Shown in pieces: positions 4,549 to 17,669 of a stretch of DNA of 64,000 nt; the first letter of the stretch is position 1; each line of letters opens with the position of its first letter. The notes under the pieces were generated by a model, which worked only from the letters and a program-made list of their open reading frames with translations, did not search any database and was not told the DNA's origin. The stretch lies in the sequence record LC494302.1; one strand, given 5' to 3'. The DNA is from Escherichia phage SP27. The position numbers were made by a program, and so were the translations under genes.

Positions 4549-5185
4549 TTAAACACATAGAGACAGGGGAAGCTCCTAGTGAACAACCTTTATGTACAGG
4601 CGAATTGTTAAAATTCAGCCTGGACAAATGCGATCACTAGGATTCTCCCCAGGCTAAACCCCGTAATCATAGGTAGTCATAAGTAATCATATATAAACAT
4701 TTATATGAGCACCGTAGAATCACAGAATGATTATATATGATTCAGTACTGATTAGTATAGACAAGAATGCTCAAGAATGCACGGGAAGGATTCAGAATGA
4801 TTCAGTACTGATATGCCACTAAGTAGGCAGAGGAAGTCTGCCGTACTTTGTAGTTTCCAAGCTCCTTTTCCATTTTGCAAATTACATCAAATGTAATCAA
4901 AAGTAATCACGCAATGATTAGTACTGAATTATTACTTTCACCTTAATTTCAATTACCCCTTTACCCTTCGGGGTAAAATTCAATTACCCCTTGAGGCTCC
5001 AGCAAAAAGTTGGTTAGTACTCCATCCTAAATCTGGATCGTAAAAAATTTGGAGTACCTATGAAATAAAAGTTGGATCTTCGAAAGTTGAAATTTACGTT
5101 GGGACATATAGGATTTGTGGGATATAATGAGTTTTGTAGCGATACAGATTATACGATTTCAGTACTGAATAATGAAAGAAAGCTA

Positions 5186-5213
5186 TTGACATTATGATTC
5201 AGTACTGTATAAT
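5186..5213 (+). promoter_or_regulatory. orphan sigma70-like promoter with no downstream ORF
   Basis: TTGACA 5186-5191, 16 bp spacer containing AGTACTG, TATAAT 5208-5213. Confidence 0.5.
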
Positions 5214-5549
5214 GTTCTACATAGGGTGATGAGTTGCTGCGAACAATTCATTTACTCTACCTCCTGTCGTGAGACAGTACAGAAAAGATAGTTCCTCCTG
5301 TGGTGGTACATCTTTTTGAACCTCATATGAAAATCGTAATAACAGTACTGATATTAACAGAATGGTGTCAGTACTGATTTTAATCTAAAGCATTATGCCA
5401 CCAGCACAAGTTGGTGGATTCCCTCTAACAGTATTCAGTACTACATGATAGTCTTCATCCTCCTAGGGTAACATAGTGAGGGCTATGATGGCAGTACTGA
5501 ATACTCCCTTTCAAAAGATAGATCTATGGTATAGTACTGACGGATTTTG

Positions 5550-5745
5550 GGTGTAGTTACCCTGGATGGATTTTGGACGTAGATATGTCTAGCCCTCCAG
5601 AAGTCTGGAAGTAAAGATGGCTATCCATCTAGACGGCTAAACGGATAGATTTCTGGATGGCTGGATGGCTAGACGTTTGGACGGCTAAACGGCTAGATGG
5701 TTACACGTCTGGAAGTATAGACGGCTAAATCAAAATTTTATTTTG
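5550..5745. repeat. cluster of short direct repeats (iteron-like)
   Basis: GACGGCTAAA x3, TCTGGAAGTA x2, several GGATGG/CCATCC and CTAGACG motifs within about 200 bp, locally GC-richer. Confidence 0.5.
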
Positions 5746-5950
5746 TTTTTTCCAATAGTTCCCCTACCGCGTGGGGATAGTTTCCCCGCAGTATCTGGAG
5801 TTAGATTTTTCTGAATCTGGAATCATTATCTTATAAACTGGGGGCAATGTCAACGGCCTGGACGGATATTTTTAAAAATTTTTTCAGTACTGAATTTTGG
5901 GCGTAACTATGCACCCGGTGGGCTTGAGTCTTTCTCGACTTGATGGAACT

Positions 5951-5978
5951 ATTATACAGTACTGAAAAAATAAAGCAA
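5951..5978 (-). promoter_or_regulatory. minus-strand sigma70-like promoter
   Basis: reverse complement reads TTGCTT-16-TATAAT; transcribes leftward through a GCACCCGGTGGG element. Confidence 0.4.
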
Positions 5979-6166
5979 TACCCTGGAAGCAAAAAAGTTT
6001 TAATTAATTTGCTTGCTATCCTGGGCCGGACTATGGTACTATATTTCAGTACTGAGAAAGTGCGTTTACCTGCTAGGGTGCGGGAGTGTATCCTTTTTTT
6101 ATATCTTGAATTTTGGGCGTAATTCCGCACCCTCTGGGGTTTCCGCTTTCTCGCGTCTATGTAGTA

Positions 6167-6194
6167 ATTATACGCTTTTTCAGGATCAAGTCAA
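6167..6194 (-). promoter_or_regulatory. minus-strand sigma70-like promoter
   Basis: reverse complement reads TTGACT-16-GCGTATAAT. Confidence 0.45.
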
Positions 6195-6349
6195 TACCTA
6201 AAAACAAAATAATTGAAAATAATTTAACGCGTTTAAACGGCCCGTAACGCCCTGGAATGATTAGAATGGTGCAAATGTATAGCTTAGGTGTATTAATGCG
6301 TTAGAATGCGTCTGAGGCCGTTTTATGGGGTGTAGTAGTGATTTGGTTG

Positions 6350-6440
6350 ATTCAGTACTGAATAATAGTACTCCTATATAGAAAGATAGTTCCCCTGGAT
6401 GGTTGCAGTACTGAATAATAGTACTCCTATATAGAAAGAA
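6350..6440. repeat. direct repeat of about 34 bp, two copies
   Basis: CAGTACTGAATAATAGTACTCCTATATAGAAAGA occurs twice about 55 bp apart. Confidence 0.7.
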
Positions 6441-6470
6441 AACTATTTTAAAAGTATTTGTAGAAAGTAC

Positions 6471-6530
6471 TTGCACCGTACTGATAAAAGCGTATAATGT
6501 TTTACATCGAGAGCGGGAACACTTCCCGCT
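6471..6530 (+). promoter_or_regulatory. class I early promoter plus 5' stem-loop cassette
   Basis: TTGCAC 6471-6476, TATAAT 6493-6498, GTTTTACATC; hairpin AGCGGGAAcacTTCCCGCT 6512-6530. Confidence 0.65.
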
Positions 6531-6553
6531 ACACATTAAGAGAGATTAAAACG

Positions 6554-6916
6554 ATGGCGACTCAAATCAATAAAATCATGCTTAACCTGGTAAACTTCCG
6601 CGATGAGATGAAAGGTCTTCCGGCTGAAACTGTAAAAATTCACATTGCAGCTTATCGGGAACTTATTGCAATGTTGCCGCTTAAGCGTGAACAATACGCC
6701 GCTACTTTGATGCTGGATTCAATGATCCATATAATGATCTCAAATGATTTAACGATGGTTTATCAGTACATGGGCGAAAATTTCGCGGTGTGTAGTAAGC
6801 CAGTACCAGGGATGGCAACAACTGAGGAATTGCACGGCTTAAACTTAAAACAAGATGCATGGGATAATATGCCTCGTTTCCTGGTATGGGCTGACAGTGG
6901 CAAAATTTACAAATAA
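6554..6916 (+). CDS. hypothetical protein
   Basis: start at ATG 6554 (MATQINK) downstream of cassette; 120 aa. Confidence 0.6.
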   Translation: MATQINKIMLNLVNFRDEMKGLPAETVKIHIAAYRELIAMLPLKREQYAATLMLDSMIHIMISNDLTMVYQYMGENFAVCSKPVPGMATTEELHGLNLKQDAWDNMPRFLVWADSGKIYK

Positions 6917-6930
6917 GTTTAATAAAGTAC

Positions 6931-6989
6931 TTGCAAACTATGTTTAATGGCGTATAATGTTTTACATCAGGTGGGGAATAGTTCCCCAC
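6931..6989 (+). promoter_or_regulatory. class I early promoter plus 5' stem-loop cassette
   Basis: AAAGTACTTGCAA -35, GCGTATAAT -10 at 6953-6958; hairpin GTGGGGAAtagTTCCCCAC 6971-6989. Confidence 0.7.
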
Positions 6990-7008
6990 TATATAAGAGG
7001 ATTAAAAA

Positions 7009-7248
7009 ATGGCTAAATCAAAAATGTTCTTAGGTCACAAAAACAAAACTCATTGGAATGTAAGCCTGTGGATTAATAACGATGAGGGATTGTATCGGTT
7101 GGCCCTGGACTTTATTGCCGCCAATACTAATCGCAATGATGCGGCCCGTCATATGATGTTATTTTTAGAACAGACTGGACAAGATAAAACACCGGACGGA
7201 TTCAAATATAGCACTACTGCGATCCGTGCGGCGATGGTTGGAATGTAA
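7009..7248 (+). CDS. hypothetical protein, paralog of 9050..9289
   Basis: shares HKNKTHWNVSLWINN and TPDGFKYSTTAIRAAMVGM with the 9050 gene. Confidence 0.65.
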   Translation: MAKSKMFLGHKNKTHWNVSLWINNDEGLYRLALDFIAANTNRNDAARHMMLFLEQTGQDKTPDGFKYSTTAIRAAMVGM

Positions 7249-7334
7249 TAGAATTTATTTAAAGTACTATCATTTTTTTGCGATAGTACTTTATAATAGT
7301 GTTTTATTCATACACCAACGATAAGGGCAACAGC

Positions 7335-7601
7335 ATGAATATTAAGTATTTTGCGACGCGTGAACAAGCTCGGATCGCCGCACGCCAGGACGGGGCAACG
7401 TTTAAAGATATGGGAGCGGGATCGGCAAGTGGTGAACGTTGGGCCATTGTAAAGCGTAGTACGGCCAGATCTTTACAGTACTGGTTAGCGGCCTTAAAAA
7501 GTCCCGATAGTGTATCGCGTCGAGTGGTAGAAATAAAGCTCGACCGAAAGGGCAACCGCGTGACCGTGTACCGTACTAAAAAGATTGCAGTACTTGAATA
7601 A
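7335..7601 (+). CDS. hypothetical protein, paralog of 20376..20771
   Basis: shares FATREQARIAAR..GETFKDMG and DRKGNRVTVY; start at ATG 7335. Confidence 0.6.
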   Translation: MNIKYFATREQARIAARQDGATFKDMGAGSASGERWAIVKRSTARSLQYWLAALKSPDSVSRRVVEIKLDRKGNRVTVYRTKKIAVLE

Positions 7602-7608
7602 AAAGTAC

Positions 7609-7667
7609 TTGCAAACTATGTTTAATGGCGTATAATGTTTTACATCGAGAGCGGGAACACTTCCCGC
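7609..7667 (+). promoter_or_regulatory. class I early promoter plus 5' stem-loop cassette
   Basis: TTGCAA 7609-7614, TATAAT 7631-7636; hairpin GCGGGAAcacTTCCCGC 7651-7667. Confidence 0.7.
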
Positions 7668-7688
7668 CTATAACCTGGAGTAATAAAA

Positions 7689-7919
7689 ATGACTAATATG
7701 TATATGACTGAAGTTAAAACCGTAAAAGATACTACCACGAATAAAACTACTTACTTACAGCGGATCTGTGGTGTATGGCAACGTATCAGCAAATCAAAGT
7801 ACTTTAAATTAACATCATATGCAAATCGTTCGGATTCATTCAGTACTGAAATAAAAGGTAATAAAGTACACCAATACGGCACTTATTATTATTATAGCCT
7901 GGACGCGATTGCAGTATAA
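7689..7919 (+). CDS. hypothetical protein
   Basis: GGAG RBS; 76 aa. Confidence 0.55.
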   Translation: MTNMYMTEVKTVKDTTTNKTTYLQRICGVWQRISKSKYFKLTSYANRSDSFSTEIKGNKVHQYGTYYYYSLDAIAV

Positions 7920-7957
7920 GCAGTTTACAAATCTTTACAATTGCCGGTATTGACTTA

Positions 7958-7988
7958 TTTTGTCAGTACTGGCATAATGTATTCATTG
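7958..7988 (+). promoter_or_regulatory. class II promoter (TTGACT ... AGTACTGGCATAAT)
   Basis: ATTGACTtattttgtcAGTACTGGCATAAT; no ORF downstream; faces a minus-strand promoter. Confidence 0.45.
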
Positions 7989-8093
7989 GCAGATAAGCCG
8001 TAGCCCATAGGGTGCGGGAGTGTATCTATAGAAAAAGTAGTTTAGTATAGTTACAATTGTGCACCCGGTGGGTTAGCTGTTGTCATGGGGTAT

Positions 8094-8122
8094 ATTATGC
8101 CAGTACTTGATAATGCTGTCAA
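8094..8122 (-). promoter_or_regulatory. minus-strand class II promoter, convergent with the 7958 promoter
   Basis: reverse complement reads ATTGACAgcattatcaAGTACTGGCATAAT. Confidence 0.45.
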
Positions 8123-8168
8123 TACTTTTTTTTTAATATTCAGTACTGAAAACTATTTTTAAAAAGTA

Positions 8169-8196
8169 CTTGCAAACTATGTTTAAAGGCGTATAA
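8169..8196 (+). promoter_or_regulatory. class I early promoter
   Basis: AAAAGTACTTGCAAactatgtttaaaGGCGTATAATGTTTTACATC. Confidence 0.65.
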
Positions 8197-8205
8197 TGTT
8201 TTACA

Positions 8206-8277
8206 TCAGGACGGGGAACGAAATAAGTAACTTCCCGTTAAGTAGCCCAGGAGTAAGGCACACGAAAAACTCCCCTG
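8206..8277 (+). other. conserved structured RNA-like element, copy 1
   Basis: CAGG-ACGGGGAA...TTCCCGT...CTCCCCTG nested complementarity; near-identical copy at 19183-19251. Confidence 0.4.
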
Positions 8278-8287
8278 ATAAAATAGT

Positions 8288-8315
8288 TTGACAATTGTTT
8301 TTAAAAGCGTATAAT
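8288..8315 (+). promoter_or_regulatory. sigma70-like promoter
   Basis: TTGACA 8288-8293, 16 bp spacer, TATAAT 8310-8315. Confidence 0.6.
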
Positions 8316-8347
8316 ACTTACATCAACTACTGAATGAGGGTTACAAA

Positions 8348-8959
8348 ATGAAAACTATCACTACTACTACTTATGTTATGGCTTTTTCTGAATTGAACGC
8401 AGAACAACAAACGTCAGCTATCGAACTGGTTCGGGAACGTGAAAAAAACTTAAACGATGATTATTTTTCTGAAAGTGAAATTGAATACTATAAAGAAACA
8501 GTACTACCGGAATATGGCATTAATGACGCTGAAATACAATTCAGTGGCTTTTGGTCCCAGGGTGACGGTGCATCAATCAGTACTGACCACGTTGACGCAG
8601 TGAAGTTTTTACGCAAGGTAAGAGCATTAACTAAGTATCGCTCAATCCGTCACTTGCTGAATGAAGATGATTTGGCGATGAGTGTAAAGCGTTCGCACTC
8701 CCACTACTCGCATGAGAATACTGTAAGCGGGTACATTGAATCGGCTTACACTGATTTAACCGCAAAACAAGAAACGTTAGTTAATGAGCTTGAGGAACTA
8801 CTCACTGAAACTATTCGTGAATTATCCCGCAAGTTGTACCGTGATTTAGAGAATGCATATGAGGATCAATTCACTACTGAAAACATTACGGCACTGATTG
8901 AGGGTAACGAATATCAATTCAATGTTATTGATGGAGTAGTAGAATCAATCGAATATTAA
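8348..8959 (+). CDS. hypothetical acidic protein
   Basis: 203 aa; GAGGG RBS; no family recognised. Confidence 0.6.
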   Translation: MKTITTTTYVMAFSELNAEQQTSAIELVREREKNLNDDYFSESEIEYYKETVLPEYGINDAEIQFSGFWSQGDGASISTDHVDAVKFLRKVRALTKYRSIRHLLNEDDLAMSVKRSHSHYSHENTVSGYIESAYTDLTAKQETLVNELEELLTETIRELSRKLYRDLENAYEDQFTTENITALIEGNEYQFNVIDGVVESIEY

Positions 8960-8971
8960 TTTAAAAAGTAC

Positions 8972-9031
8972 TTGCAAACTAAGTTTAAAAGCGTATAATA
9001 CTTTATATCGAGGCGGGGAGTGGTTCCCCGC
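8972..9031 (+). promoter_or_regulatory. class I early promoter plus 5' stem-loop cassette
   Basis: TTGCAA 8972-8977, TATAAT 8994-8999; hairpin GCGGGGAgtggTTCCCCGC 9013-9031. Confidence 0.65.
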
Positions 9032-9049
9032 TCAAACGAGGATTTAAAA

Positions 9050-9289
9050 ATGGCTAGTACTAAAACTTACAACGGACACAAAAACAAAACTCATTGGAAT
9101 GTAAGCCTTTGGATTAATAACGGTGAGTCATTGTATCGGCTTGCTCAAAGTTGCATCGCACAAAGTAGAACTAAAGATATTGCTGCGGAATGTATGTACC
9201 GCAGATTAAAAGCCAACGGTACTACTACAACGCCGGACGGCTTTAAGTATAGCACTACTGCGATCCGTGCTGCAATGGTTGGAATGTAA
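9050..9289 (+). CDS. hypothetical protein, paralog of 7009..7248
   Basis: start at ATG 9050 (MASTKTYNGHKNKTHWNVSLWINN); conserved C-term. Confidence 0.65.
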   Translation: MASTKTYNGHKNKTHWNVSLWINNGESLYRLAQSCIAQSRTKDIAAECMYRRLKANGTTTTPDGFKYSTTAIRAAMVGM

Positions 9290-9328
9290 TATTCAGTACT
9301 GAGATAATGGCGGGAACTATTACCCGCC
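9279..9328 (+). promoter_or_regulatory. promoter plus stem-loop
   Basis: TTGGAA 9279-9284, AGTACTGAGATAAT -10; hairpin GGCGGGaactattaCCCGCC 9309-9328. Confidence 0.4.
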
Positions 9329-9346
9329 TTTACTGAGGGTTATCTA

Positions 9347-9634
9347 ATGAGTAAAGTAATAAAGTACAATGTGTTAAGCAAATCATTGTCTATCAGTGAA
9401 TGCACCGATGGTTTTTGGATGTACGATGAAACGCGTGGCATGAATTTAGCTATGCGTGCAAAAACTGCTGAGGCGGCGTATATTCAAGCACTGGAATACT
9501 ACCAGGAACGTTTGAAGGAAGTAGAAGAAGATTATAAAAGCCTCAAAGCGAAAGTAGATCATTTCGTCGGTCAATTCGTGGAAGACAACGACGAGGACGG
9601 GCACTACTGCGACCGTTGCGGATCTTACAGTTAA
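9347..9634 (+). CDS. hypothetical protein
   Basis: 95 aa; C-terminal CDRCGSYS. Confidence 0.55.
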   Translation: MSKVIKYNVLSKSLSISECTDGFWMYDETRGMNLAMRAKTAEAAYIQALEYYQERLKEVEEDYKSLKAKVDHFVGQFVEDNDEDGHYCDRCGSYS

Positions 9635-9651
9635 GTACTAAGGATTATATA

Positions 9652-9864
9652 ATGAGTGATTTAATTGAACGTATCAAAGAGCTTGAAGAAAAAGAATTGC
9701 AGTTGATCGGGTTACGGAATAAAGTATTCCATGATTTAGGTGGCTTTATTAATGCCTGGGATAGTGGCGATCCTGATGCGTTACCTGCTAACCGCCAGGC
9801 GATGATCAATGATGTGCGTGGTGTCTTTGATTATGTTTTAAAAGTACTAGACACTAAGCAATAA
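9652..9864 (+). CDS. hypothetical protein
   Basis: start at ATG 9652 (MSDLIERIKELEEKE). Confidence 0.55.
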   Translation: MSDLIERIKELEEKELQLIGLRNKVFHDLGGFINAWDSGDPDALPANRQAMINDVRGVFDYVLKVLDTKQ

Positions 9865-9925
9865 AGGCGTATAATACTTTATATTGGTACTGACAAACAT
9901 TATAAGCGATGCAGGAGCTTTAATC

Positions 9926-10111
9926 ATGACAACATTATCTGAGGTTATCCGCGATCAAGCTGCAAAGGCTGGAATGACTGTTATCAATGTAGGGATCAAG
10001 ATTGAGATCTCCCCTAACGAGTTGCAAGGGATTCCCGATCCTACTAGCTGGGATCGTGCTGGGCGAATGATGAGTAATGCTTCATTACTGGACGGTACAA
10101 AATTTAATTAA
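9926..10111 (+). CDS. hypothetical protein
   Basis: start at ATG 9926 after AGGAG RBS (MTTLSEVIRDQ). Confidence 0.5.
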   Translation: MTTLSEVIRDQAAKAGMTVINVGIKIEISPNELQGIPDPTSWDRAGRMMSNASLLDGTKFN

Positions 10112-10118
10112 AAAGTAC

Positions 10119-10178
10119 TTGCAATTAGTTTTCAGTACTGTATAATGGTTTACATCAAAGGGAGAAATGGTTCTCCCT
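10119..10178 (+). promoter_or_regulatory. class I early promoter plus 5' stem-loop cassette
   Basis: TTGCAA 10119-10124, TATAAT 10141-10146; hairpin AGGGAGAAatggTTCTCCCT 10159-10178. Confidence 0.65.
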
Positions 10179-10196
10179 GGTAATGAGGAAAATACA

Positions 10197-10418
10197 ATGG
10201 CTAATATCACTACTCTTTCCCAACTGGAAGCACTGGTTAAATCTATGCGGGAACATGCCGACAAAATCGGCGTACAAGATCCAGCCGTTTGCTTCTGCGA
10301 CGAATTGAATGATGATACACTGGTAATAGCAGAAGTCCAGGACGTTTCTAACTATTCCTCGCGTTACACTGGCGGCGTAGCAAATAAAGGTGACTTCTGT
10401 TTATACCTTACAAAATAA
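10197..10418 (+). CDS. hypothetical protein
   Basis: start at ATG 10197 (MANITTLSQ) after GAGGA RBS. Confidence 0.55.
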   Translation: MANITTLSQLEALVKSMREHADKIGVQDPAVCFCDELNDDTLVIAEVQDVSNYSSRYTGGVANKGDFCLYLTK

Positions 10419-10453
10419 CAACGCGGGGAGATAATAACTCCCCGTTACTTTTT
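10419..10453 (+). terminator. intrinsic terminator
   Basis: AACGCGGGGAGataataaCTCCCCGTT stem followed by T-run. Confidence 0.5.
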
Positions 10454-10524
10454 CAGTACTGAATCATTTAATAGACGGATCTCGGCACCCGGTGGGTTAG
10501 TGACTGTTTCGTCTTGATGTAGTA

Positions 10525-10553
10525 ATTATGCCAGTACTGGATGCACTTGTCAA
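10525..10553 (-). promoter_or_regulatory. minus-strand class II promoter
   Basis: reverse complement reads TTGACAagtgcatccAGTACTGGCATAAT; transcribes leftward through GCACCCGGTGGG element. Confidence 0.45.
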
Positions 10554-10586
10554 CAACTATTTTTCAAATACTTTTTATTAAAATAC

Positions 10587-10640
10587 TTGCAATTAGTTTT
10601 TAAACGCGTATAATGTTTTGCATAGGGGGAGCGGTTCCCC
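10587..10640 (+). promoter_or_regulatory. class I early promoter plus 5' stem-loop cassette
   Basis: TTGCAA 10587-10592, TATAAT 10609-10614; hairpin GGGGGAgcggTTCCCC. Confidence 0.6.
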
Positions 10641-10661
10641 TGGTAACTAAGGAATAATAAA

Positions 10662-10898
10662 ATGCTTGAACAAATCAAATCAACGTCTGCGAATGTAACG
10701 GGAACGGTTGTACACTTTACTAGTGATGAATCGCGGGGCGTTCCCTATTGTGCTGTACATGTAAACACTGATGGCAACTACTGGTTTACGGTTTACGGAT
10801 CATATTCATTTGGACGGCCAGGGCATCAAAAAATTCTGGATAAAGTACAACCAACGGGTAAAAATATCACTGCCGAAATGTTTTATAAAAAATCATAA
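10662..10898 (+). CDS. hypothetical protein
   Basis: 78 aa downstream of cassette. Confidence 0.55.
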   Translation: MLEQIKSTSANVTGTVVHFTSDESRGVPYCAVHVNTDGNYWFTVYGSYSFGRPGHQKILDKVQPTGKNITAEMFYKKS

Positions 10899-10903
10899 AG
10901 TAC

Positions 10904-10962
10904 TTGCAATTAGTTTTTAGTACTGTATAATATTTTACATCGCAAGGGGAAACGGTTTCCCC
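10904..10962 (+). promoter_or_regulatory. class I early promoter plus 5' stem-loop cassette
   Basis: TTGCAA 10904-10909, TATAAT 10926-10931; hairpin GGGGAAacggTTTCCCC 10946-10962. Confidence 0.65.
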
Positions 10963-10982
10963 TGGTAACTAAGGATAATCAA

Positions 10983-11282
10983 ATGAAAATTGCAATCATC
11001 GCCCTGGCTTTATCTGTTTCCTCTTTCGCTGTTAATGCGTCGTTAGATGTAAGTAGTGAAAAATTCATTCAGTGCACTGTTGCAATGACCGATGAAAGAA
11101 CTGGCGAGATTGTATTAAAGGATTTAGAGATCCAGCCGGAAGCATTTAAAAACGGCCCGTTCCATGAAGAAGACGAAAACGGTAGCACGACAATTTATTA
11201 TGATGCCAGTTCCAAGCGTGGATCGGTCACTGTAATGGATACTGAGAAAGTAACACACACAGGCGTTATTAATTGCCGTTGA
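10983..11282 (+). CDS. small secreted or periplasmic protein (predicted signal peptide)
   Basis: N-terminus MKIAIIALALSVSSFAVNAS is signal-peptide-like (basic start, hydrophobic core, A-x-A-like site). Confidence 0.55.
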   Translation: MKIAIIALALSVSSFAVNASLDVSSEKFIQCTVAMTDERTGEIVLKDLEIQPEAFKNGPFHEEDENGSTTIYYDASSKRGSVTVMDTEKVTHTGVINCR

Positions 11283-11303
11283 TAGATACTACGGGGTAAC
11301 ATC

Positions 11304-11534
11304 ATGACTAAGCGAATTGTTTTACTTAACGAAAGCAGTACTACACAACTACTTAACGCCGTGCATTATGATATTGAAACGAGCGTTAATCTTATCAGTA
11401 CTGTAGTACTGTTGGACACTGGAAAGGTCGCCAATGATAAAGCGATTGCAGGTATATTAACGGATCTTGAGCCTGGTAGCAGTGCACCCATAACGTTAAA
11501 TGGTAAAGTGTTTAATATTTTACTCACTGATTAA
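11304..11534 (+). CDS. hypothetical protein
   Basis: 76 aa; followed by terminator. Confidence 0.55.
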   Translation: MTKRIVLLNESSTTQLLNAVHYDIETSVNLISTVVLLDTGKVANDKAIAGILTDLEPGSSAPITLNGKVFNILLTD

Positions 11535-11540
11535 GTACAT

Positions 11541-11568
11541 AGCCCACCAGGTGGGCTTTTTTGTTTTT
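11541..11568 (+). terminator. intrinsic terminator
   Basis: AGCCCACCaGGTGGGCT hairpin followed by TTTTTTGTTTTT. Confidence 0.75.
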
Positions 11569-11767
11569 ATAGTATCGTAGTACTGAGATACTTTGAAAAT
11601 AGTTTTAAGAAAGTAGTTGACATTACCACAGAAAAGCGTAGAATGTATTACATCAAGACGGGGAGCACTAAGTAGACCGCCAGTAAGTCGAACGAAAAAC
11701 TGGACACGTCGAGAAAACTTTGATACACTAATAAACGTAAACTAAACTTTAATTGAGGATTTATAAA

Positions 11768-12250
11768 ATGGCTAATGTAAAATCATTCATCAAAGCACTG
11801 GTAGCAAATGAAACTAACGTCGCGGCTGAGATCCTGGCTGAACTGGATAACGATACCATGAAAGCGGTACGCAATAATTTTAACATCGCGTACAGTACTG
11901 CGAAAGAACTACAAGCAAATAAAGCGGCAGAAATTGAAGCGGCAAAGGCGGCCCGTGAAGCAGAACTACAAGCAACAATCGAAAGTATCCAGGCGGCGGT
12001 GTCTGGATTGGATCTGGAAGTGGTTGTGGAAATGGCACATAAAGCCCTGGCGGTTAAGTATGGTGAAGATAAGCCAGAATCTAAACCTAAAAAATGGATT
12101 CAAGAACGTGTTACTGTAGTACTTGATAACGGGGAAGAACATATGATTCCTGTACGCGGTAACTGCATTGCGGTAGTACTGGACGCTATCAAAGAAAGCG
12201 GTATGACTCGCGAGGAATGGATCGAAGCTCATCGCAAAGTTGAAGCATAA
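11768..12250 (+). CDS. hypothetical protein
   Basis: start at ATG 11768 (MANVKSF) after GAGGA RBS; Ala/Glu-rich central helix. Confidence 0.55.
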   Translation: MANVKSFIKALVANETNVAAEILAELDNDTMKAVRNNFNIAYSTAKELQANKAAEIEAAKAAREAELQATIESIQAAVSGLDLEVVVEMAHKALAVKYGEDKPESKPKKWIQERVTVVLDNGEEHMIPVRGNCIAVVLDAIKESGMTREEWIEAHRKVEA

Positions 12251-12271
12251 CAATTAAAGTACTGAATCACT

Positions 12272-12300
12272 AGCCCACCTTAAACAGTGGGCTTTTTTGT
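12272..12300 (+). terminator. intrinsic terminator
   Basis: AGCCCACcttaaacaGTGGGCT followed by TTTTTTGT. Confidence 0.7.
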
Positions 12301-12453
12301 GTCTGTAGTATTCCAGTCCACCAGCACCGCCTAGAATCGATTCTAACGCATTAAACTGATTATCTGATGCATTGCCCTAGCTGGTGGCGTGAAGGTCGTT
12401 AGAATGCGATTGAGAGCGTTTAAAGTATTTTGCAAAAAGTAATAAAAAGTACT

Positions 12454-12512
12454 TGCACGATTAAGAGATTAGCGTATAATGTTTTACATCGAGAGGGGGA
12501 AACGGTTCTCCT
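12454..12512 (+). promoter_or_regulatory. class I early promoter plus 5' stem-loop cassette
   Basis: TTGCAC 12454-12459, GCGTATAAT 12475-12480; hairpin GGGGGAAacggTTCTCC. Confidence 0.6.
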
Positions 12513-12535
12513 TCCAAATCAAAGGAATCAAAACA

Positions 12536-12763
12536 ATGGCTATTATCATTACTCGCGTATCTGGTACTACTGGCAACGAACAAGTAGTTGCAGTCATTAC
12601 CAACAAGGAAGGTGCGGAATTGCAAAATGCAATGAATACCTGGGCCGTTAATGAGTTCGGTCAGTGGGCAAGTGTAGCATACATTGAAACCTATCAAGTG
12701 CCGTCGATTAGTTTAACTGATTTGGGCGTTGAGCGTATCCTTTGCCTGGATGAATTAAATTAA
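12536..12763 (+). CDS. hypothetical protein
   Basis: start at ATG 12536 (MAIIITRVSG). Confidence 0.55.
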   Translation: MAIIITRVSGTTGNEQVVAVITNKEGAELQNAMNTWAVNEFGQWASVAYIETYQVPSISLTDLGVERILCLDELN

Positions 12764-12772
12764 AAAAGTACT

Positions 12773-12832
12773 TGCAAAGTAAATCGAATAAAGTATAATA
12801 CATTACATCAAGGGGAGAAATGGTTCTCCCCA
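12773..12832 (+). promoter_or_regulatory. class I early promoter plus 5' stem-loop cassette
   Basis: TTGCAA 12773-12778, TATAAT 12794-12799; hairpin GGGGAGAAatggTTCTCCCC 12813-12832. Confidence 0.65.
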
Positions 12833-12848
12833 CTACAAGGAAACTAAA

Positions 12849-12992
12849 ATGAAAACTTGTCAATGTGGTCAGAAATCTATTACGGGTTTAAAGCGGGGCG
12901 TTGCTCTTTGCCAGTACCATTATAATTTACAAGTATGGGGTAAAGAATGGGCCGACCAGGTGGAAGCAGCAAAGAAAGCAAAAAGTAAGTAA
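12849..12992 (+). CDS. hypothetical small Cys-containing protein (47 aa, below ORF-track cutoff)
   Basis: read by hand: MKTCQCGQKSITGLKRGVALCQYHYN...; own cassette and RBS. Confidence 0.45.
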   Translation: MKTCQCGQKSITGLKRGVALCQYHYNLQVWGKEWADQVEAAKKAKSK

Positions 12993-13011
12993 AAATATTA
13001 TCACAGTACTA

Positions 13012-13040
13012 TTGACATAGTTTGATAGTACTGGCATAAT
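13012..13040 (+). promoter_or_regulatory. class II promoter
   Basis: CAGTACTATTGACAtagtttgatAGTACTGGCATAAT; no 5' hairpin. Confidence 0.6.
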
Positions 13041-13073
13041 AGATTTTATCAAGACAACTAAGAGGAAATTAAA

Positions 13074-13418
13074 ATGGCTAACATCAATACTATAGCAGCA
13101 CAAAATATCAACCTGTCTTCTGTTGAAGTTGTACACATTGCCGCCCGGCGTTGGTTCCAGGCGTCTTATGGTAATACTTATTTCTCTTTAACGGTAGATG
13201 TTGAAATCAATGGCGAATTTATTGAAGTAGTAAACGTGCCGTTCCAATATGGCTACGGGGATCATTTTGACACTGTAGCAATGGAAGAATTTAGCAAGGT
13301 TATTAATATGGAAGGTAAAGAGTTTTTACGCGGTTCTTATCTTTCCCGTTTTTGCCGTGATAATAATATCACTGTTTATAGTTCGGTAACTGATGTTAAA
13401 CGCAAAAAAGATCTTTAA
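13074..13418 (+). CDS. hypothetical protein, paralog of 19957..20280
   Basis: shares GNTY, YGYG and C-terminal DVKRKKD with the 19957 gene. Confidence 0.6.
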   Translation: MANINTIAAQNINLSSVEVVHIAARRWFQASYGNTYFSLTVDVEINGEFIEVVNVPFQYGYGDHFDTVAMEEFSKVINMEGKEFLRGSYLSRFCRDNNITVYSSVTDVKRKKDL

Positions 13419-13498
13419 TTAGCTTTACTTTATGCAGATACTTTGATATAGTGTCTGCATAGGGGAAAGAAATTAAATTAACTTAAGAGGATAGTATA

Positions 13499-13768
13499 AT
13501 GAAAAATATCAGTACTTTAATCGATGCAGGTACACATGTTCGGCGGTCTATGGTTGCAACCAGTACTACAAAACAAGTAGCGAGCGGTTATCTTGTATTT
13601 GTGCACGATGGAAAACTCCTGGAACGTTCAATCAATTTTGATGTTAAAAACAATTGCCGTTTTATTATCTTTAAGCGTGAGCAATATAAAATTGATTTAC
13701 CAGCAAAGCCCATTAGTGGGGCGTACAACGTGCAATCAATGTTTGAACGTCAACCATACACCTATTAA
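13499..13768 (+). CDS. hypothetical protein
   Basis: 89 aa. Confidence 0.5.
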   Translation: MKNISTLIDAGTHVRRSMVATSTTKQVASGYLVFVHDGKLLERSINFDVKNNCRFIIFKREQYKIDLPAKPISGAYNVQSMFERQPYTY

Positions 13769-13819
13769 TCAAAACATCGTTAGCGGTCGATTCAGGCCGC
13801 TTATATTGGGGATTATACC

Positions 13820-14092
13820 ATGAACGTTAATCAAGTACTGAATGAGATCGAAAGCATCATTAAACCGATGAAGCGTACTGATGCTATGTTAACACCGGAA
13901 GAATGCCGCCTTTATGAGCGTTACAGCGTCGAACAAGTCCAGGCAATGGCTATGGCTACCCCAGCCGTTAAACCGCCTGAGAATGCGTTACAGGACGTTA
14001 CAGGGGATTATATCATCAATCCAGTACTAGGGAAGATGGCTGCAATCACCGAAGATCAACAAGACTACTTAAGCCAGTACTTAAAAGGTTAA
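13820..14092 (+). CDS. hypothetical protein
   Basis: 90 aa. Confidence 0.5.
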   Translation: MNVNQVLNEIESIIKPMKRTDAMLTPEECRLYERYSVEQVQAMAMATPAVKPPENALQDVTGDYIINPVLGKMAAITEDQQDYLSQYLKG

Positions 14093-14097
14093 TTAAT

Positions 14098-14307
14098 ATG
14101 CTTACTGTACAGGATAAGATCGACATCTTAAAGGTTAATATGTATGTGATTGATGCAGTACCTGGTAAAGTATTTGCATACGATGATAGTACTGTAAGCG
14201 ATTTCTACTATAGCCAGGCCGTGGGGGATCTTTCTGTACAGTCGGTTATTGAAAACGTAGTTAATGCAGCGTATGAGCATTTACTTTCAAATAGTACTTG
14301 CAATTAG
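14098..14307 (+). CDS. hypothetical protein
   Basis: 69 aa immediately after previous gene. Confidence 0.5.
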   Translation: MLTVQDKIDILKVNMYVIDAVPGKVFAYDDSTVSDFYYSQAVGDLSVQSVIENVVNAAYEHLLSNSTCN

Positions 14308-14357
14308 TTTTTAAACGCGTATAATGTTTTACATGAAGGGGAGAAATGATTCTCCCC
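14298..14357 (+). promoter_or_regulatory. class I early promoter plus 5' stem-loop cassette
   Basis: TTGCAA 14298-14303, TATAAT 14320-14325; hairpin GGGGAGAAatgaTTCTCCCC 14338-14357. Confidence 0.65.
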
Positions 14358-14376
14358 ACTAATTAAGGAATATGAA

Positions 14377-14523
14377 ATGAAAGCATCAAAAAAGAGTACT
14401 AACAAGAAAGCACGTTCAACCTTAGATGGGGTATTCCCTTTACGTTTCGTTGATGAAGTGGTTTCCTACCCGCCTGGCCTTACTCCTGAGATGGTAGAAA
14501 GTTTGCGTAAATCTAAAAAATAG
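14377..14523 (+). CDS. hypothetical small basic protein (48 aa, below ORF-track cutoff)
   Basis: read by hand: MKASKKSTNKKARSTLDG...; AAGGA RBS. Confidence 0.4.
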   Translation: MKASKKSTNKKARSTLDGVFPLRFVDEVVSYPPGLTPEMVESLRKSKK

Positions 14524-14526
14524 TAC

Positions 14527-14586
14527 TTGCAATTAGTTTTTAGTACTGTATAATGTTTTACATAGAGGGGGGAAATGGTTCTCCCC
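14527..14586 (+). promoter_or_regulatory. class I early promoter plus 5' stem-loop cassette
   Basis: TTGCAA 14527-14532, TATAAT 14549-14554; hairpin GGGGGGAAatggTTCTCCCC. Confidence 0.65.
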
Positions 14587-14604
14587 AATAACAGGAGAAA
14601 CAAA

Positions 14605-14757
14605 ATGAAACAATACAACGCTCGGTTTGATGTTACTATCGGCAACGGTAAAGGTCAATTCTCTTTCAGTACTCGACGCAGTTATACAGAAAACTTCCTG
14701 CGTAATTGTGCACTGACCGCCGCACAAATTAAACATTACTTTCAGGCTAAAAAATGA
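14605..14757 (+). CDS. hypothetical small protein (50 aa)
   Basis: start at ATG 14605 (MKQYNARFDV) after AGGAGA RBS. Confidence 0.45.
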   Translation: MKQYNARFDVTIGNGKGQFSFSTRRSYTENFLRNCALTAAQIKHYFQAKK

Positions 14758-14843
14758 GATCATTAGCTTATTACAGTTCGGCCCTGGTCGGTGCATTGAT
14801 CGCGGCGTTGTTAGTAACCTATCTATTCTTTATGGTGATTTAA
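14754..14843 (+). CDS. possible small hydrophobic peptide (29 aa)
   Basis: read by hand: MRSLAYYSSALVGALIAALLVTYLFFMVI; ATGA overlap. Confidence 0.3.
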   Translation: MRSLAYYSSALVGALIAALLVTYLFFMVI

Positions 14844-14981
14844 ATGAATCCTAACGGTATAATTTACAGTACTCCTAAAACGAAAGCAGACAAGGTAAAC
14901 GCTAAAAAAGCGAAAGTAAAGGAGTACATCAAGCAAGGCATGACGCGAAAGGCGGCGATTCTAAAAGCTAAAAATAAATGA
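14844..14981 (+). CDS. possible small Lys-rich protein (45 aa)
   Basis: read by hand: MNPNGIIYSTPKTKADKVNAKKAKVKEY... Confidence 0.3.
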   Translation: MNPNGIIYSTPKTKADKVNAKKAKVKEYIKQGMTRKAAILKAKNK

Positions 14982-14987
14982 AAAAAG

Positions 14988-15009
14988 TGGTTGACTTCGG
15001 TCAGCCATT
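14988..15009 (+). terminator. intrinsic terminator (first part of repeated intergenic module)
   Basis: GGTTGAC-TTCG-GTCAGCC hairpin with tetraloop, then TTTTGC. Confidence 0.5.
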
Positions 15010-15112
15010 TTGCTATTATATATTCATTGAGAGATAGCTCACTAGCCCACAGGGTGCAGGAGTGTATCTATTGTATAATGTTTGAGTACTTAAAACTATT
15101 TTTAAAAAAGTA

Positions 15113-15172
15113 CTTGCAAACTATCTCAATAAGCGTATAATGTTTTACATCGCAAGGGGAAACGGTTTCCCC
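15113..15172 (+). promoter_or_regulatory. class I early promoter plus 5' stem-loop cassette
   Basis: TTGCAA 15113-15118, TATAAT 15135-15140; hairpin GGGGAAacggTTTCCCC 15156-15172. Confidence 0.65.
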
Positions 15173-15192
15173 TAGTAATAAGGAAACAAATC

Positions 15193-15534
15193 ATGACTAT
15201 CTCAATTGCTCAATCTAACTTTGAAAACGAAATCATCGCCCAGGCACTGCGTTTAAATGATGGTCGGGCCGAAATCAATTACGGTTTCAATTCAGGCGGT
15301 TGTGAAAAATATCAGTACTTTATAACTGCTGATGGCTGTGTCCTGGGCATCAATACAGTTATTGTAAACATCCAAAAAATTAATTTCAATGATCCAGACG
15401 ATAGCCAGTTTTACATCACTGGCGTAGACGTGAACTATGAGGATGACTCACTAACTGATGATCACACTGGCGAGCGGTTAGAAAGTGCATACGGTGAAGA
15501 TGATTATCAGTCCGGTCCAGAAGATTTCGAATAA
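15193..15534 (+). CDS. hypothetical acidic protein
   Basis: 113 aa. Confidence 0.55.
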   Translation: MTISIAQSNFENEIIAQALRLNDGRAEINYGFNSGGCEKYQYFITADGCVLGINTVIVNIQKINFNDPDDSQFYITGVDVNYEDDSLTDDHTGERLESAYGEDDYQSGPEDFE

Positions 15535-15547
15535 TATAAAAAAATAG

Positions 15548-15606
15548 TTTGACAATAGATTATAGTACTGTATAATGTTTTACATGAAGGGGAGAATAGT
15601 TCTCCC
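15548..15606 (+). promoter_or_regulatory. promoter plus 5' stem-loop cassette (TTGACA variant)
   Basis: TTGACA 15548-15553, TAGTACTGTATAAT -10; hairpin GGGGAGAAtagTTCTCCCC. Confidence 0.65.
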
Positions 15607-15627
15607 CACTAACAGAGAGAAAACAAA

Positions 15628-15840
15628 ATGGCTAATATCCGGTCGAAATTAAAAAATGCAAAACAAGTTTTATTTTCAGATCATGAATACTTTAATAAAG
15701 ATATTACAGGAGTTACAAGTATCAAGGAAGTAAAAGAAAAAACCGGCGTTTTGTGTGATGTGCGATTAGTTGGAACATTTGGGAATAACGTGCTATATCG
15801 CTGCGGTGATTACAATTTTACACTGACTATCATTAACTAA
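15628..15840 (+). CDS. hypothetical protein
   Basis: 70 aa. Confidence 0.55.
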   Translation: MANIRSKLKNAKQVLFSDHEYFNKDITGVTSIKEVKEKTGVLCDVRLVGTFGNNVLYRCGDYNFTLTIIN

Positions 15841-15868
15841 AAATATTATCACAGTACTATCAAAGCTA

Positions 15869-15897
15869 TTGACAATGATTGATAGTACTGGCATAAT
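15869..15897 (+). promoter_or_regulatory. class II promoter
   Basis: CAGTACTATcaaagctATTGACAatgattgatAGTACTGGCATAAT. Confidence 0.6.
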
Positions 15898-15932
15898 AAC
15901 TTTTATCAACTACACTACTAAGGAATTAAAAA

Positions 15933-16112
15933 ATGGCTATCATCGCAAAAACTGAAATCGTTGGTCTGGATTCTATCATCATGACGTTTGAAGATCAAAA
16001 AGGTATGTATGTAGTTTCCTATGGTGATTATGTTCGGGAGTATGAAACGGTAGACGAAGCCTTTGAAAGTTATATTCGCCAGGTGAATAAAGCATACGAC
16101 GACTACCGCTAA
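15933..16112 (+). CDS. hypothetical small protein (59 aa, below ORF-track cutoff)
   Basis: read by hand: MAIIAKTEIVGLDSIIMTFEDQKG...; AAGGA RBS. Confidence 0.45.
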   Translation: MAIIAKTEIVGLDSIIMTFEDQKGMYVVSYGDYVREYETVDEAFESYIRQVNKAYDDYR

Positions 16113-16139
16113 AATATATTACCAGTACTATTAAATCTA

Positions 16140-16168
16140 TTGACAATGTTTGATAGTACTGTATAATA
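16140..16168 (+). promoter_or_regulatory. class II promoter
   Basis: CAGTACTATtaaatctATTGACAatgtttgatAGTACTGTATAAT. Confidence 0.6.
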
Positions 16169-16211
16169 AGTTTTATAAACAGTAGTTAACTTAACCTAAG
16201 AGAGAAATAAA

Positions 16212-16355
16212 ATGATCGCACTGGATTCATTCATCGACGCAGTACTGGCAAAAACTGGCGAGGATCTGACCGCAGAACAATACGCGATGATCGAACAATG
16301 TCAACAGGACGGTAAATCGGTGAAAGATACTGTTAAGATTATCCGCAAGATGTAA
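16212..16355 (+). CDS. hypothetical small protein (47 aa, below ORF-track cutoff)
   Basis: read by hand: MIALDSFIDAVLAKTGEDLTAEQYAMIEQCQQDG...; followed by terminator. Confidence 0.45.
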   Translation: MIALDSFIDAVLAKTGEDLTAEQYAMIEQCQQDGKSVKDTVKIIRKM

Positions 16356-16361
16356 GATTAT

Positions 16362-16390
16362 AGCCCACTGGTTAACGCTGGTGGGCTTTA
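16362..16390 (+). terminator. intrinsic terminator
   Basis: AGCCCACtggttaacgctgGTGGGCT hairpin, weak T-run. Confidence 0.5.
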
Positions 16391-16460
16391 ATTCATCACC
16401 CTATACAATGCCAGTACTCAACCGTTTATCTCGTTAGAATGCGTTACAGGACGTTTAACA

Positions 16461-16658
16461 ATGATTAGCATGAAATCAGTACAAAAACAAATAGAAACAT
16501 TATCAAAAATTAAACGTAAACAGTACTCCTTAGAATATACAATCAATGGTAACTATCATCTAATGAAAGAGAATAATTTTATAGTCATTGATGAATCATT
16601 GCAAATCATTAGTATAGTACTGAAAGCATTAATCAATGACAGAAAAAAATTAAAATAA
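16461..16658 (+). CDS. hypothetical protein
   Basis: 65 aa. Confidence 0.45.
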   Translation: MISMKSVQKQIETLSKIKRKQYSLEYTINGNYHLMKENNFIVIDESLQIISIVLKALINDRKKLK

Positions 16659-16662
16659 TCTA

Positions 16663-16691
16663 TTGACAATATCATCCAGTACTGGCATAAT
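16663..16691 (+). promoter_or_regulatory. class II promoter
   Basis: ATTGACAatatcatccAGTACTGGCATAAT; followed by about 300 nt leader with TGATCA repeats. Confidence 0.55.
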
Positions 16692-16989
16692 ACTTACACC
16701 AAGACGAGAACGTCACTAACCCATAGGGTGCACAAATGTAACTGTATAATATTGATCAAAAAATGATCTGATCAATACTTGATCAATTTGCGTAAAGTAG
16801 TATAATTCTATGCAGTTGGTTAGACGAAAGGTTATGATTAGTAGTGCAAGTGTATAAAAATTTTCATGGTGTATCGTTCCGCACATATGGGGATGAATAT
16901 GTGGTATCATGTGGATTGGAAAAAGTAAGAACAAGTAATATTATTGTCGCATTACAGTACTATAGTATTTTTATAATGAGGTTAAAATA

Positions 16990-17247: not shown

Positions 17248-17253
17248 AAAGTA

Positions 17254-17667: not shown

Positions 17668-17669
17668 TA

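Follow-up and report, generated by a model that had tools for sequence, protein, structure and literature searches.

Ten copies of a short transcription unit, in which a sigma70-type promoter is followed by an RNA core that can fold into a hairpin, occur together with one degenerate copy between 5.9 and 24.4 kb, on both strands, of a 64,000-nucleotide stretch of the Escherichia phage SP27 genome (LC494302.1), the whole of which is called the window below. These units belong to a conserved multicopy family that is restricted to the terminal repeat of RaK2-like jumbo phages, and their transcribed core is under strong purifying selection with constraints of an RNA type. As to function, the reading that we favour, with somewhat less than even confidence, is that the sequences point to a multicopy immediate-early RNA module carrying a protein-recognition hairpin.

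The start of infection by RaK2-like jumbo phages (350–380 kb) is almost wholly unexplored, and their 20-kb terminal repeats have so far been annotated merely as rows of hypothetical proteins. A motif repeated 10 to 12 times per repeat, equipped with consensus host promoters and found from Escherichia to Pectobacterium and Serratia phages, thus offers a testable handle on the first minutes of infection. Following it up could reveal a new RNA-protein interaction, a mode of early-transcription control or an anti-host RNA.

A unit family confined to the terminal repeat

An initial annotation of the window had proposed four minus-strand promoters, each reading leftward through a related short sequence, and had taken the products for a family of small RNAs or antisense regulators. 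All four promoters are present, three being found by promoter scan and that at 5978-5951 being read from the sequence. The shared downstream sequence is also real and non-random: the motif CCCACCGGGTGC, with up to two mismatches, occurs 13 times in the window against a shuffle mean of 0.40, and none of 100 shuffles reaches 13, although kinship among the copies inflates shuffle statistics in general. The common motif stands for the family but not as an exact copy at 6127, which reads CCCAGAGGGTGC, and the proposed ending in ACGCCCAAAA is found in the two left-most units (5911 and 6127) and not elsewhere. A family of related units, each with its own strong promoter, is thus confirmed, but its supposed specificity for the minus strand is not, six of the units being on the plus strand (Table 1).

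A covariance-model scan of the window returned exactly ten units at E ≤ 1.2e-7, with the caveats that sequences used in building the model match it by construction and that E-values are rough, the calibration having been shortened. The match of m5911 (44.5 bits, E 5.6e-8), for instance, is partly by construction, as a near-identical orthologue from G17 is in the seed alignment. The degenerate copy p6070, which faces m6127, has lost its CCC strand (CTGCTAGGGTGC) and gives a match of 18.4 bits (E 0.58). It carries GGGUGCGGGAGUGUAUCC followed by U7, resembling an intrinsic terminator (terminator scan 6075-6094; hairpin -8.7 kcal/mol), and shares AGGGTGCGGGAGTGTATC with the copies at 8009, 15051 and 22078.

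Table 1. Units and associated features. Positions are those of the window unless another phage is named; m and p denote minus- and plus-strand units, and bits and E are those of the covariance-model match.
Feature	Position	Strand	Description
Direct terminal repeat	4822..25750	.	inferred by homology; encloses every unit
Extra leftward promoter	5853-5825	-	sigma70-type, TTGACA-17-GATAAT; no unit behind it; points at the iteron-like block
Unit m5911	5885..5978	-	promoter 5978-5951, TTGCTT-16-TATAAT, 9/12, read straight from sequence; 5' hairpin GUC-GAGAAA-GAC; core 5922-5911; tail UUACGCCCAAAAUUC
Degenerate unit p6070	6040..6107	+	CCC strand lost; faces m6127
Unit m6127	6101..6194	-	promoter 6194-6167, TTGACT-16-TATAAT, 11/12 (promoter scan); 5' hairpin CGC-GAGAAA-GCG; core CCCAGAGGGUGC at 6138-6127; 46.1 bits, E 2e-8
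Unit p8004	7950..8041	+	promoter 7950-7978, TTGACT-17-CATAAT, TG-extended; 5' hairpin GGC-AGAUAA-GCC; core 8004-8015; co-directional member of convergent pair; 50.9 bits, E 1e-9
Unit m8061	8035..8122	-	promoter 8122-8094, TTGACA-17-CATAAT, TG-extended, 11/12; short leader without 5' hairpin; core 8072-8061; anti-directional member of convergent pair; 43.2 bits, E 1.2e-7
Unit m10485	10415..10553	-	promoter 10553-10525, TTGACA-17-CATAAT, TG-extended, 11/12; 5' hairpin GAC-GAAACA-GUC; core 10496-10485; UCAGUACUGA element, then bidirectional terminator 10444-10424; predicted RNA ~100 nt; 61 bits, E 2.1e-12
Unit p15046	14991..15083	+	promoter -35 within UUCG-loop terminator hairpin; core 15046-15057; 66.5 bits
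Unit p16720	16663..16757	+	core 16720-16731; 56.5 bits
Unit p19076	19026..19113	+	short-leader class; core 19076-19087; Chi next, at 19107; 57.1 bits
Unit p22073	22018..22110	+	core 22073-22084; 65.4 bits
Unit p24324	24274..24361	+	short-leader class; core 24324-24335; last unit; 65.3 bits
Fused terminator-promoter hairpins	~14985-15020, 19020-19055, 22012-22047, 24268-24303		design also in RaK2 and metagenomic relatives
Units of Pectobacterium phage CBB	980-20,936		12 units, within annotated 22,456-bp repeat; none in next 3.5 kb (26 kb searched)
Units of Klebsiella phage fENko-Kae01	973-18,800		10 units, within 19,736-bp PhageTerm repeat; none in next 4.3 kb (24 kb searched)
Units of Serratia phage BF	967-18,705		12 units; none in next 11 kb (30 kb searched)

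The segment 5500-10700 is 87–98% identical to jumbo E. coli myophages of the PBECO4/121Q/phAPEC6 group (Asteriusvirus), in which every feature of the matched region is annotated as 'hypothetical protein'. No RNA annotation covers the unit region among the public records examined, and the units are not described in the published accounts of phAPEC6, CBB, fEgEco12 and PA5oct nor elsewhere in the literature searched. The limits of the direct terminal repeat (DTR) come from fEgEco12, for which PhageTerm and restriction digests confirmed the termini and a DTR of 20,993 bp (PMC13070987). In our alignments, position 1 of fEgEco12 corresponds to window 4822, and 19800-22200 of its record to window 24557-26957; the right edge of the repeat, at about window 25,750, is an extrapolation good to within a few bases. 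Since the repeat spans these positions, all units lie within it, the leftmost about 1.06 kb from the left physical end and the rightmost about 1.4 kb short of the repeat boundary.

The same confinement is seen in related phages. The complete genome of ECO103 4-12-1 (351,992 bp) has 10 units, all in one 19-kb stretch that corresponds to about 5.9–24.4 kb of the window and maps within the experimentally defined fEgEco12 DTR; this is the one genome in which absence outside the repeat was tested genome-wide. In CBB, fENko-Kae01 and BF, the units are likewise gathered at the genome end (Table 1). Units also occur in RaK2-, GAP32- and 121Q-like contigs and in metagenomic jumbo contigs, and matches to an 18-base pattern in IMG/VR are confined to jumbo-phage contigs; an earlier, broader IMG/VR pattern was dropped as unspecific, its hits being mainly chance single matches. 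With Erwinia phage Hallingskeid, two unit-bearing loci aligned by megablast over about 3% of the query, and the single match whose coordinates were checked spans the promoter and 5' half of one unit. The repeat of Pseudomonas phage PA5oct contains no unit according to the covariance model (best E 0.54). As a tool for annotation, the model can mark terminal repeats in new genomes.

All substantial open reading frames (ORFs) of the window are on the plus strand. The absence of minus-strand genes, as put forward by the initial annotation, is consistent with the seven minus-strand ORFs of 91–155 aa tested in the repeat, none of which belongs to a PHROG family. A 99-aa ORF at 5831-6130, lying over m5911 and m6127, was rejected as a gene: it matches no Pfam or PHROG family, and in ECO103 a frameshift alters its C-terminal end. 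The six others were rejected for want of a PHROG family.

Anatomy of the unit and constraint on its RNA

The common plan of the unit was drawn from aligned copies and the covariance model; promoters and orientation were scored on the 52 units first collected, and covariation on 83 distinct units from at least 6 phage lineages. A sigma70-type promoter stands at a fixed distance from the core in 52 of 52 units. Most of these promoters have a 17-bp spacer, 47 match the consensus at 10 or more of 12 positions, 48 contain TTGAC and 37 are TG-extended. A conserved CA is the predicted transcript start. The gap between the -10 element and the core falls into two classes, a short leader of 20–22 nt and a long leader of 25–29 nt.

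The long class carries a short 5' hairpin, H1, found in about two thirds of the copies and absent from the remaining third. Its 3-4-bp stem varies from copy to copy (GAG/CUC, GGC/GCC, GUC/GAC, CGC/GCG, CCAC/GUGG, AGCA/UGCU), while its 6-8-nt loop is A- or purine-rich throughout (GAGAAA, AGAUAA, AGAACAA, GCGAAA). The stem covaries: 118–120 cells with two-sided changes were counted against 42 +/- 5 in shuffled alignments, a value that none of 500 shuffles reached, and slid controls gave 13–46. A linker, usually ACUAA or CUAG, then leads to the invariant core, (A/G)CCC-loop-GGGUGC, which forms a 4-bp hairpin, H2. This hairpin is 98.8% paired, with two CCU/AGG compensations, and was predicted independently by RNAalifold. 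Its loop is varied and 3–4 nt long (ACA, AUA, ACC, ACG, AUC, AUU, AGA, UAUA, UUUA, UCAA), and its closing pair is G-U in 27 of the 83 copies.

Beyond the core come five mostly purine bases, a near-invariant U and then, about 9 nt past the core, a YRYYY element (as in GUAUCU, CCGUCU or ACGCCC). This element can pair with GGGUG to form an alternative hairpin, H3, which is 97.8% paired. Because H2 and H3 both use GGGU, they are mutually exclusive. The changes in H3 are transitions alone and keep the pairing (U-A 49, U-G 34; G-U 53, G-C 29), a pattern, with G-U and U-G retained, that works solely on the transcribed strand. The energy of H2 is about -3.7 kcal/mol; in several classes, an extended H3 attains values of -5.6 to -8.7 kcal/mol. 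Past the core the DNA is AT-rich, many cores (the AUAAAU class) are not G-rich past GGGUGC, and a U-tract past H3 was seen by eye in only about 8% of the units. Only p6070 and a few members of convergent pairs carry such a tract. Pairing of the 5' leader or H1 loop with the 3' tail, or a pseudoknot, was considered and rejected as not significant family-wide (permutation p = 0.12); leader-tail pairing looks credible in a single group, the short-leader subclass, where AUAGA could pair with UCUAU and one or two compensations are seen. The check by structure and covariation that the initial annotation advised favours an RNA structure by the compensatory changes of H1 and the transition-only variation of H3, but single-sequence folds are weak and two-sided covariation is scant in H2 and H3.

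A different reading of the same conservation places the function in the DNA. The 13-bp core would then be an operator or roadblock downstream of a mobile promoter cassette, in a shuffling module of the PeSL kind (see below), and its RNA would have no function of its own. The core is indeed a partial palindrome (ACCC-N3-GGGT), and the CCU/AGG double changes preserve dyad symmetry too. The region is made of promoter-hairpin cassettes like the hyperplastic regions of T4, and p16720 sits in a 320-bp insertion/deletion (window 16660-16979) that is flanked by the 10-bp direct repeat TTAAAATAAT and absent from ECO103 4-12-1. Loops that alternate between 3 and 4 nt and the G-U closing pair, however, break a DNA dyad and not an RNA hairpin; moreover, H1 covaries, and core and promoter keep a strictly constant relative orientation. 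A folded RNA, read from the strand that the promoter defines, accommodates G-U pairs and variable loop length better than a DNA dyad does, and we regard a pure DNA site as highly improbable. As a side observation, the 320-bp segment also holds a second promoter and GATC-rich repeats, with no convincing ORF.

Orientation and possible function

Among the 52 units, 29 (~60%) are co-directional with the local genes, 19 (~40%) are anti-directional and 4 are of undetermined orientation. The co-directional units have no terminator before the next gene start and run into the next promoter and gene as 5' leaders; lacking a terminator, they do not qualify as stand-alone small-RNA genes. In three related phages, the window not being among them, such a unit makes up the entire 5' untranslated region (UTR) of a conserved gene of about 175 aa whose product matches a 'virion structural protein' PHROG. 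In four co-directional promoters of the window, the -35 element lies inside the 5' arm of the UNCG-loop terminator hairpin of the upstream gene (AAAGGGATTGACTCCGGTCAGTCCCTTT; Table 1). The anti-directional units end either at a bidirectional terminator 38–52 nt past the core or head-on at a co-directional unit. Their predicted RNAs are about 60–115 nt long overall, and about 100–115 nt where a terminator ends them. With a promoter matching at least 10 of 12 positions, no ORF and a terminator hairpin, they have the layout of small-RNA genes at sequence level, and one subfamily is kept from promoter through terminator (UUUAGUACUGUACAAAUAAACAGGGG...).

Because the units occur in both orientations, their variable parts are unconserved and the anti-directional copies are laid out as small-RNA genes, we infer that the 5' RNA domain of about 50 nt is itself the functional entity, supplied at high dose at the start of infection. 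About ten strong promoters per repeat, and hence about 20 per virion DNA since the repeat is present twice, would yield abundant 5' RNA domain upon DNA entry. Co-directional copies would place the domain at the 5' end of early mRNAs, and anti-directional copies would act as stand-alone small-RNA genes whose 3' end is provided by the bidirectional terminator of the neighbouring gene or by the partner unit. The invariant hairpin with its free flanks would be the recognition site for a host or phage protein, and the exclusive pairings of H2 and H3 could switch this site on or off. Possible roles are then a trans-acting decoy or sponge, or a leader tag setting the fate of the transcript.

A bolder version, which we think unlikely, is that of an RNA-only immediate-early system, in which a multicopy two-state switch (H2 versus H3) in the terminal repeat would be at work ahead of all phage proteins. 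Its target might be a host factor (a nuclease, RNA chaperone or immunity sensor, for example) that is captured or disarmed, or host RNA polymerase might be reprogrammed with no protein factor. The repeat is present at both genome ends and is assumed to be the first DNA to enter the cell; the inverted and convergent copies would be integral to the design.

Several points weigh against a protein-recognition module. No candidate binding protein was found, transcript data for these phages are absent from the literature searched, and transcription is predicted, as are both RNA ends. Folds of single sequences are weak (z -1.8 to +0.4, with H2 at only the few kcal/mol given above), and two-sided covariation is nearly nil in H2 and H3. 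The latter is explained by the invariance of GGGUG, and it leaves room for a DNA site with partial dyad symmetry. The terminator-embedded co-directional promoters look built for a function in cis on downstream genes, and the conserved convergent pair described below, which lies about 1 kb from the genome end, would be left unexplained if the units were decoys and nothing more.

The cis function just mentioned could be that of a promoter-proximal element controlling polymerase in the manner of nut, put or ops, a possibility to which we assign a low probability. Polymerase that has just cleared the promoter would be modified or made to pause by nascent RNA, consisting of H1 and the core, or by non-template DNA, and would then read through the terminators between gene cassettes; anti-directional copies would then give long antisense or colliding transcripts. 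Such a role agrees with the fixed, promoter-proximal place of the core, 20–29 nt past the -10 element (about +14 to +22 if the start is about 7 nt after it). It also agrees with the order of a boxB-like H1, with variable stem and purine-rich loop, and a conserved linear or hairpin element, which resembles the boxB-boxA layout of rrn operons. Several co-directional promoters within an upstream terminator hairpin would reset transcription with a unit leader, and the sequence 8–10 nt past H2 can be taken for a pause consensus, G(-10)/Y(-1)/G(+1), which is a lead only. The choice between H2 and H3 resembles an antiterminator/terminator pair, a few copies having a U-tract. The rarity of that U-tract speaks against this model, as does the fact that some 40% of the units face away from every gene, directly before strong bidirectional terminators, while the co-directional units meet no terminator ahead of the next gene start. 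In sequence the units match neither boxA nor put nor any cis-regulatory family of Rfam, no boxA-like sequence having been seen in them. The repeat ORFs include no N-like arginine-rich protein, as no ORF between 4.8 and 33 kb has at least 5 Arg in any 14-aa window. Among the proteins encoded downstream of co-directional units, none was found to match a nucleic-acid-binding family; one is a GNAT acetyltransferase and one, in other phages, the virion structural protein.

Two convergent pairs are present in the window. In the first, which the initial annotation had recognized, the plus promoter at 7950-7978 faces the minus promoter at 8122-8094, with predicted starts about 103 bp apart; in the second, the degenerate copy at 6040-6107 (plus) faces 6194-6167 (minus). 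Convergent pairs were also found in CBB, GAP32, fENko-Kae01, BF and three metagenomic phages. A left-end pair lies at 967–1116 bp in CBB, fENko-Kae01 and BF, and its window equivalent at 1.2–1.35 kb. In some pairs the co-directional member has a terminator-like U-tract past H3. Annotated hypothetical coding sequences overlap convergent unit pairs in two of these phages (CBB_7, CBB 3793-3966; ENKO_017, fENko-Kae01 7223-7468); they are probably not genes, and these calls can be corrected. A palindrome resembling a Fur box (GAGAATGATAATCATTTAC) occurs in the convergent-pair spacers of several related phages and is absent from the pairs of the window.

The initial annotation had seen the units as small RNAs or antisense regulators. 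If that view is widened to convergent transcription, the minus-strand units would insulate or silence neighbouring early genes through RNAs complementary to plus-strand transcripts or through polymerase collision. Pairs whose starts are about 100–150 bp apart recur in at least 6 phage lineages, and one such pair keeps its distance from the genome end; the anti-directional promoters are directed into the 3' ends of genes on the plus strand, and the geometry is like that of ColE1 RNA I/RNA II or IS10 RNA-IN/RNA-OUT. Overlapping sense and antisense RNAs would arise within the pairs, but not outside them. Such regulation would need no invariant RNA core, yet no part of the unit is better conserved, and co-directional copies have the identical core. 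Most anti-directional units terminate before overlapping coding sequence, and regulator and target cannot be told apart within a pair, whose two members carry the same unit. Nor are the copies complementary to each other, as the sense of the conserved core does not change from copy to copy. The variable parts are unconserved, differing even between orthologues (window 10496 versus 121Q), and a complementary target was not found in the rest of the complete ECO103 genome (352 kb), where the sole extra match to the core pattern was rejected as an ordinary terminator. As a general role, antisense regulation finds no support, and we judge this explanation decidedly unlikely.

A further possibility is a role in replication. 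T4 origins consist of a promoter and an unwinding element, and oriE has iterons and an early transcript; a conserved core is not known from the T4 origins, which counts against the analogy. By this account, DNA replication or the copying of the terminal repeat into a duplicate would draw its primers or R-loop transcripts from the units, the G-rich core stabilizing the hybrid. Their confinement to the repeat, at intervals of about 2–3 kb and in both orientations, would suit this role. So would the AT-rich DNA past the core and the aim of the left-most units at a conserved iteron-like block 150–450 bp away, whose distance from the terminus is almost equal in the window and CBB. The phage group also encodes T4-like replication proteins (PMC7247149; PMC5259590). 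The covariation of H1 and the transition-only pattern of H3, however, indicate a folded free RNA rather than a hybrid, pairs that are convergent and not divergent are a poor layout for bidirectional priming, and many cores lack the G-richness past GGGUGC. We consider priming very unlikely.

Searches for a known identity were negative. None of 4227 Rfam models reached its gathering score in the whole window, and at E ≤ 5 on 4500-25000 the four weak matches are not on units. ARAGORN found no tRNA or tmRNA in the window. Neither a toxin nor a conserved ORF was found within the units, nor, in the comparison of orthologues and in the ECO103 genome, was a conserved single-stranded seed complementary to mRNAs. 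The units showed no similarity to E. coli genomes, in a search whose reach does not extend down to complementarities of 12–13 nt. As to an RNA anti-CRISPR, a solitary mimic of a CRISPR repeat, the core when compared by eye showed no resemblance to the E. coli type I-E and I-F repeats.

Set against known systems, the units did not pass the tests that define nut sites (boxA and an N protein), type I toxin-antitoxin or antisense loci (an ORF or a target) and seed-type small RNAs. If they work as proposed in the favoured reading, their closest analogues would be phage RNA elements near promoters or small RNAs that bind proteins. With lambda nut and HK022 put they share a position just past strong early sigma70 promoters and the combination of a hairpin with variable stem and purine-rich loop and a conserved sequence element. 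They differ in sequence, in being present in 10–12 copies per genome end instead of 2, and in pointing away from all genes in about 40% of cases. Titrating RNAs of the CsrB/RsmZ type likewise present many copies of a short conserved hairpin with variable flanks at high dosage; the unconserved variable regions are as expected by this analogy, because the partner would be a protein and not an mRNA. By contrast, each unit transcript would have a single site and its own promoter, and the motif is not a GGA loop. The convergent pairs recall ColE1 RNA I/II, IS10 RNA-IN/OUT and type I toxin-antitoxin loci in their facing promoters about 100–150 bp apart and overlapping predicted transcripts; unlike these, they have the same unit in both partners and no ORF or toxin, and most members of the family are unpaired.

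Promoter-early stem-loop (PeSL) cassettes of T4-type phages are repeated early promoters with stem-loops among small genes. The units resemble them in having promoters fused to an upstream terminator hairpin and in the one copy carried by an insertion/deletion with short direct repeats. They depart from them in their invariant RNA motif, no conserved transcribed core being known from PeSL cassettes, and in occurring in inverted orientation too. Finally, the distantly related Pseudomonas jumbo phage PA5oct produces two abundant non-coding transcripts from its long terminal repeat, ncRNA001 and ncRNA002, of 236 and 451 nt (PMC7318152). These are like the units in being terminal-repeat non-coding RNAs, the transcripts of the units being predicted only, but are unrelated to them in sequence and size, and no kinship was found. 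Among phage small-RNA and leader motifs, the units are unusual in their multiple copies, their use of both directions and their confinement to the terminal repeat.

Other features of the terminal repeat

The iteron-like block mentioned above is a cluster of short repeats at window 5540-5730 (GGCTAAACGG, CTGGATGG, TAGACGG and GGATAGA), about 720–910 bp from the inferred left end. A closely similar block occurs in CBB (KU574722 650-810) at a near-equal distance from the terminus. The block may serve in packaging, as an origin or as a stop for injection. Nearer to the end, about 365 bp from it, a perfect consensus promoter (TTGACA-16-TATAAT, plus strand) lies in the stretch 5186-5520 and is followed by about 300 nt with no ORF and with CATAGGGTGA and CAGTACTG hairpins; this stretch may give a further non-coding transcript.

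Chi sites (GCTGGTGG) occur eight times on the plus strand, every one inside the DTR (12380, 16377, 17839, 19107, 21179, 22583, 24160 and 24382), and on the minus strand at 5398, 12318 and 63553, against an expectation of only about 0.2 per strand. One inverted Chi is about 580 bp from the left end, and in this layout RecBCD would run into a Chi of the right orientation whichever genome end it entered. In related phages, Chi is also found within the spacers of unit promoters. The hexamer AGTACT is present 270 times in the whole window, where about 21 are expected, and is densest in 0–24 kb. Within promoter spacers, CAGTACTG adjoins the -10 element, and TCAGTACTGA comes after many units. The excess suggests a binding site for a dimeric regulator or a modification target.

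A second class of promoters, AAAGTACTTGCAA-N16-TATAAT, stands upstream of individual small genes at window 6927, 7605, 8166, 8968, 10115, 10900, 12768, 14294, 14523 and 15110. Each is followed by ACATC, a G+C-rich hairpin in the 5' UTR and a ribosome-binding site, in a cassette-like layout. Directly past the inferred DTR end, at window 25848-31400, about 25 small paralogous genes are tightly packed in a tandem array; they encode products of about 65–90 aa, many starting with MK(M)I.L...EY, and have no individual promoters.

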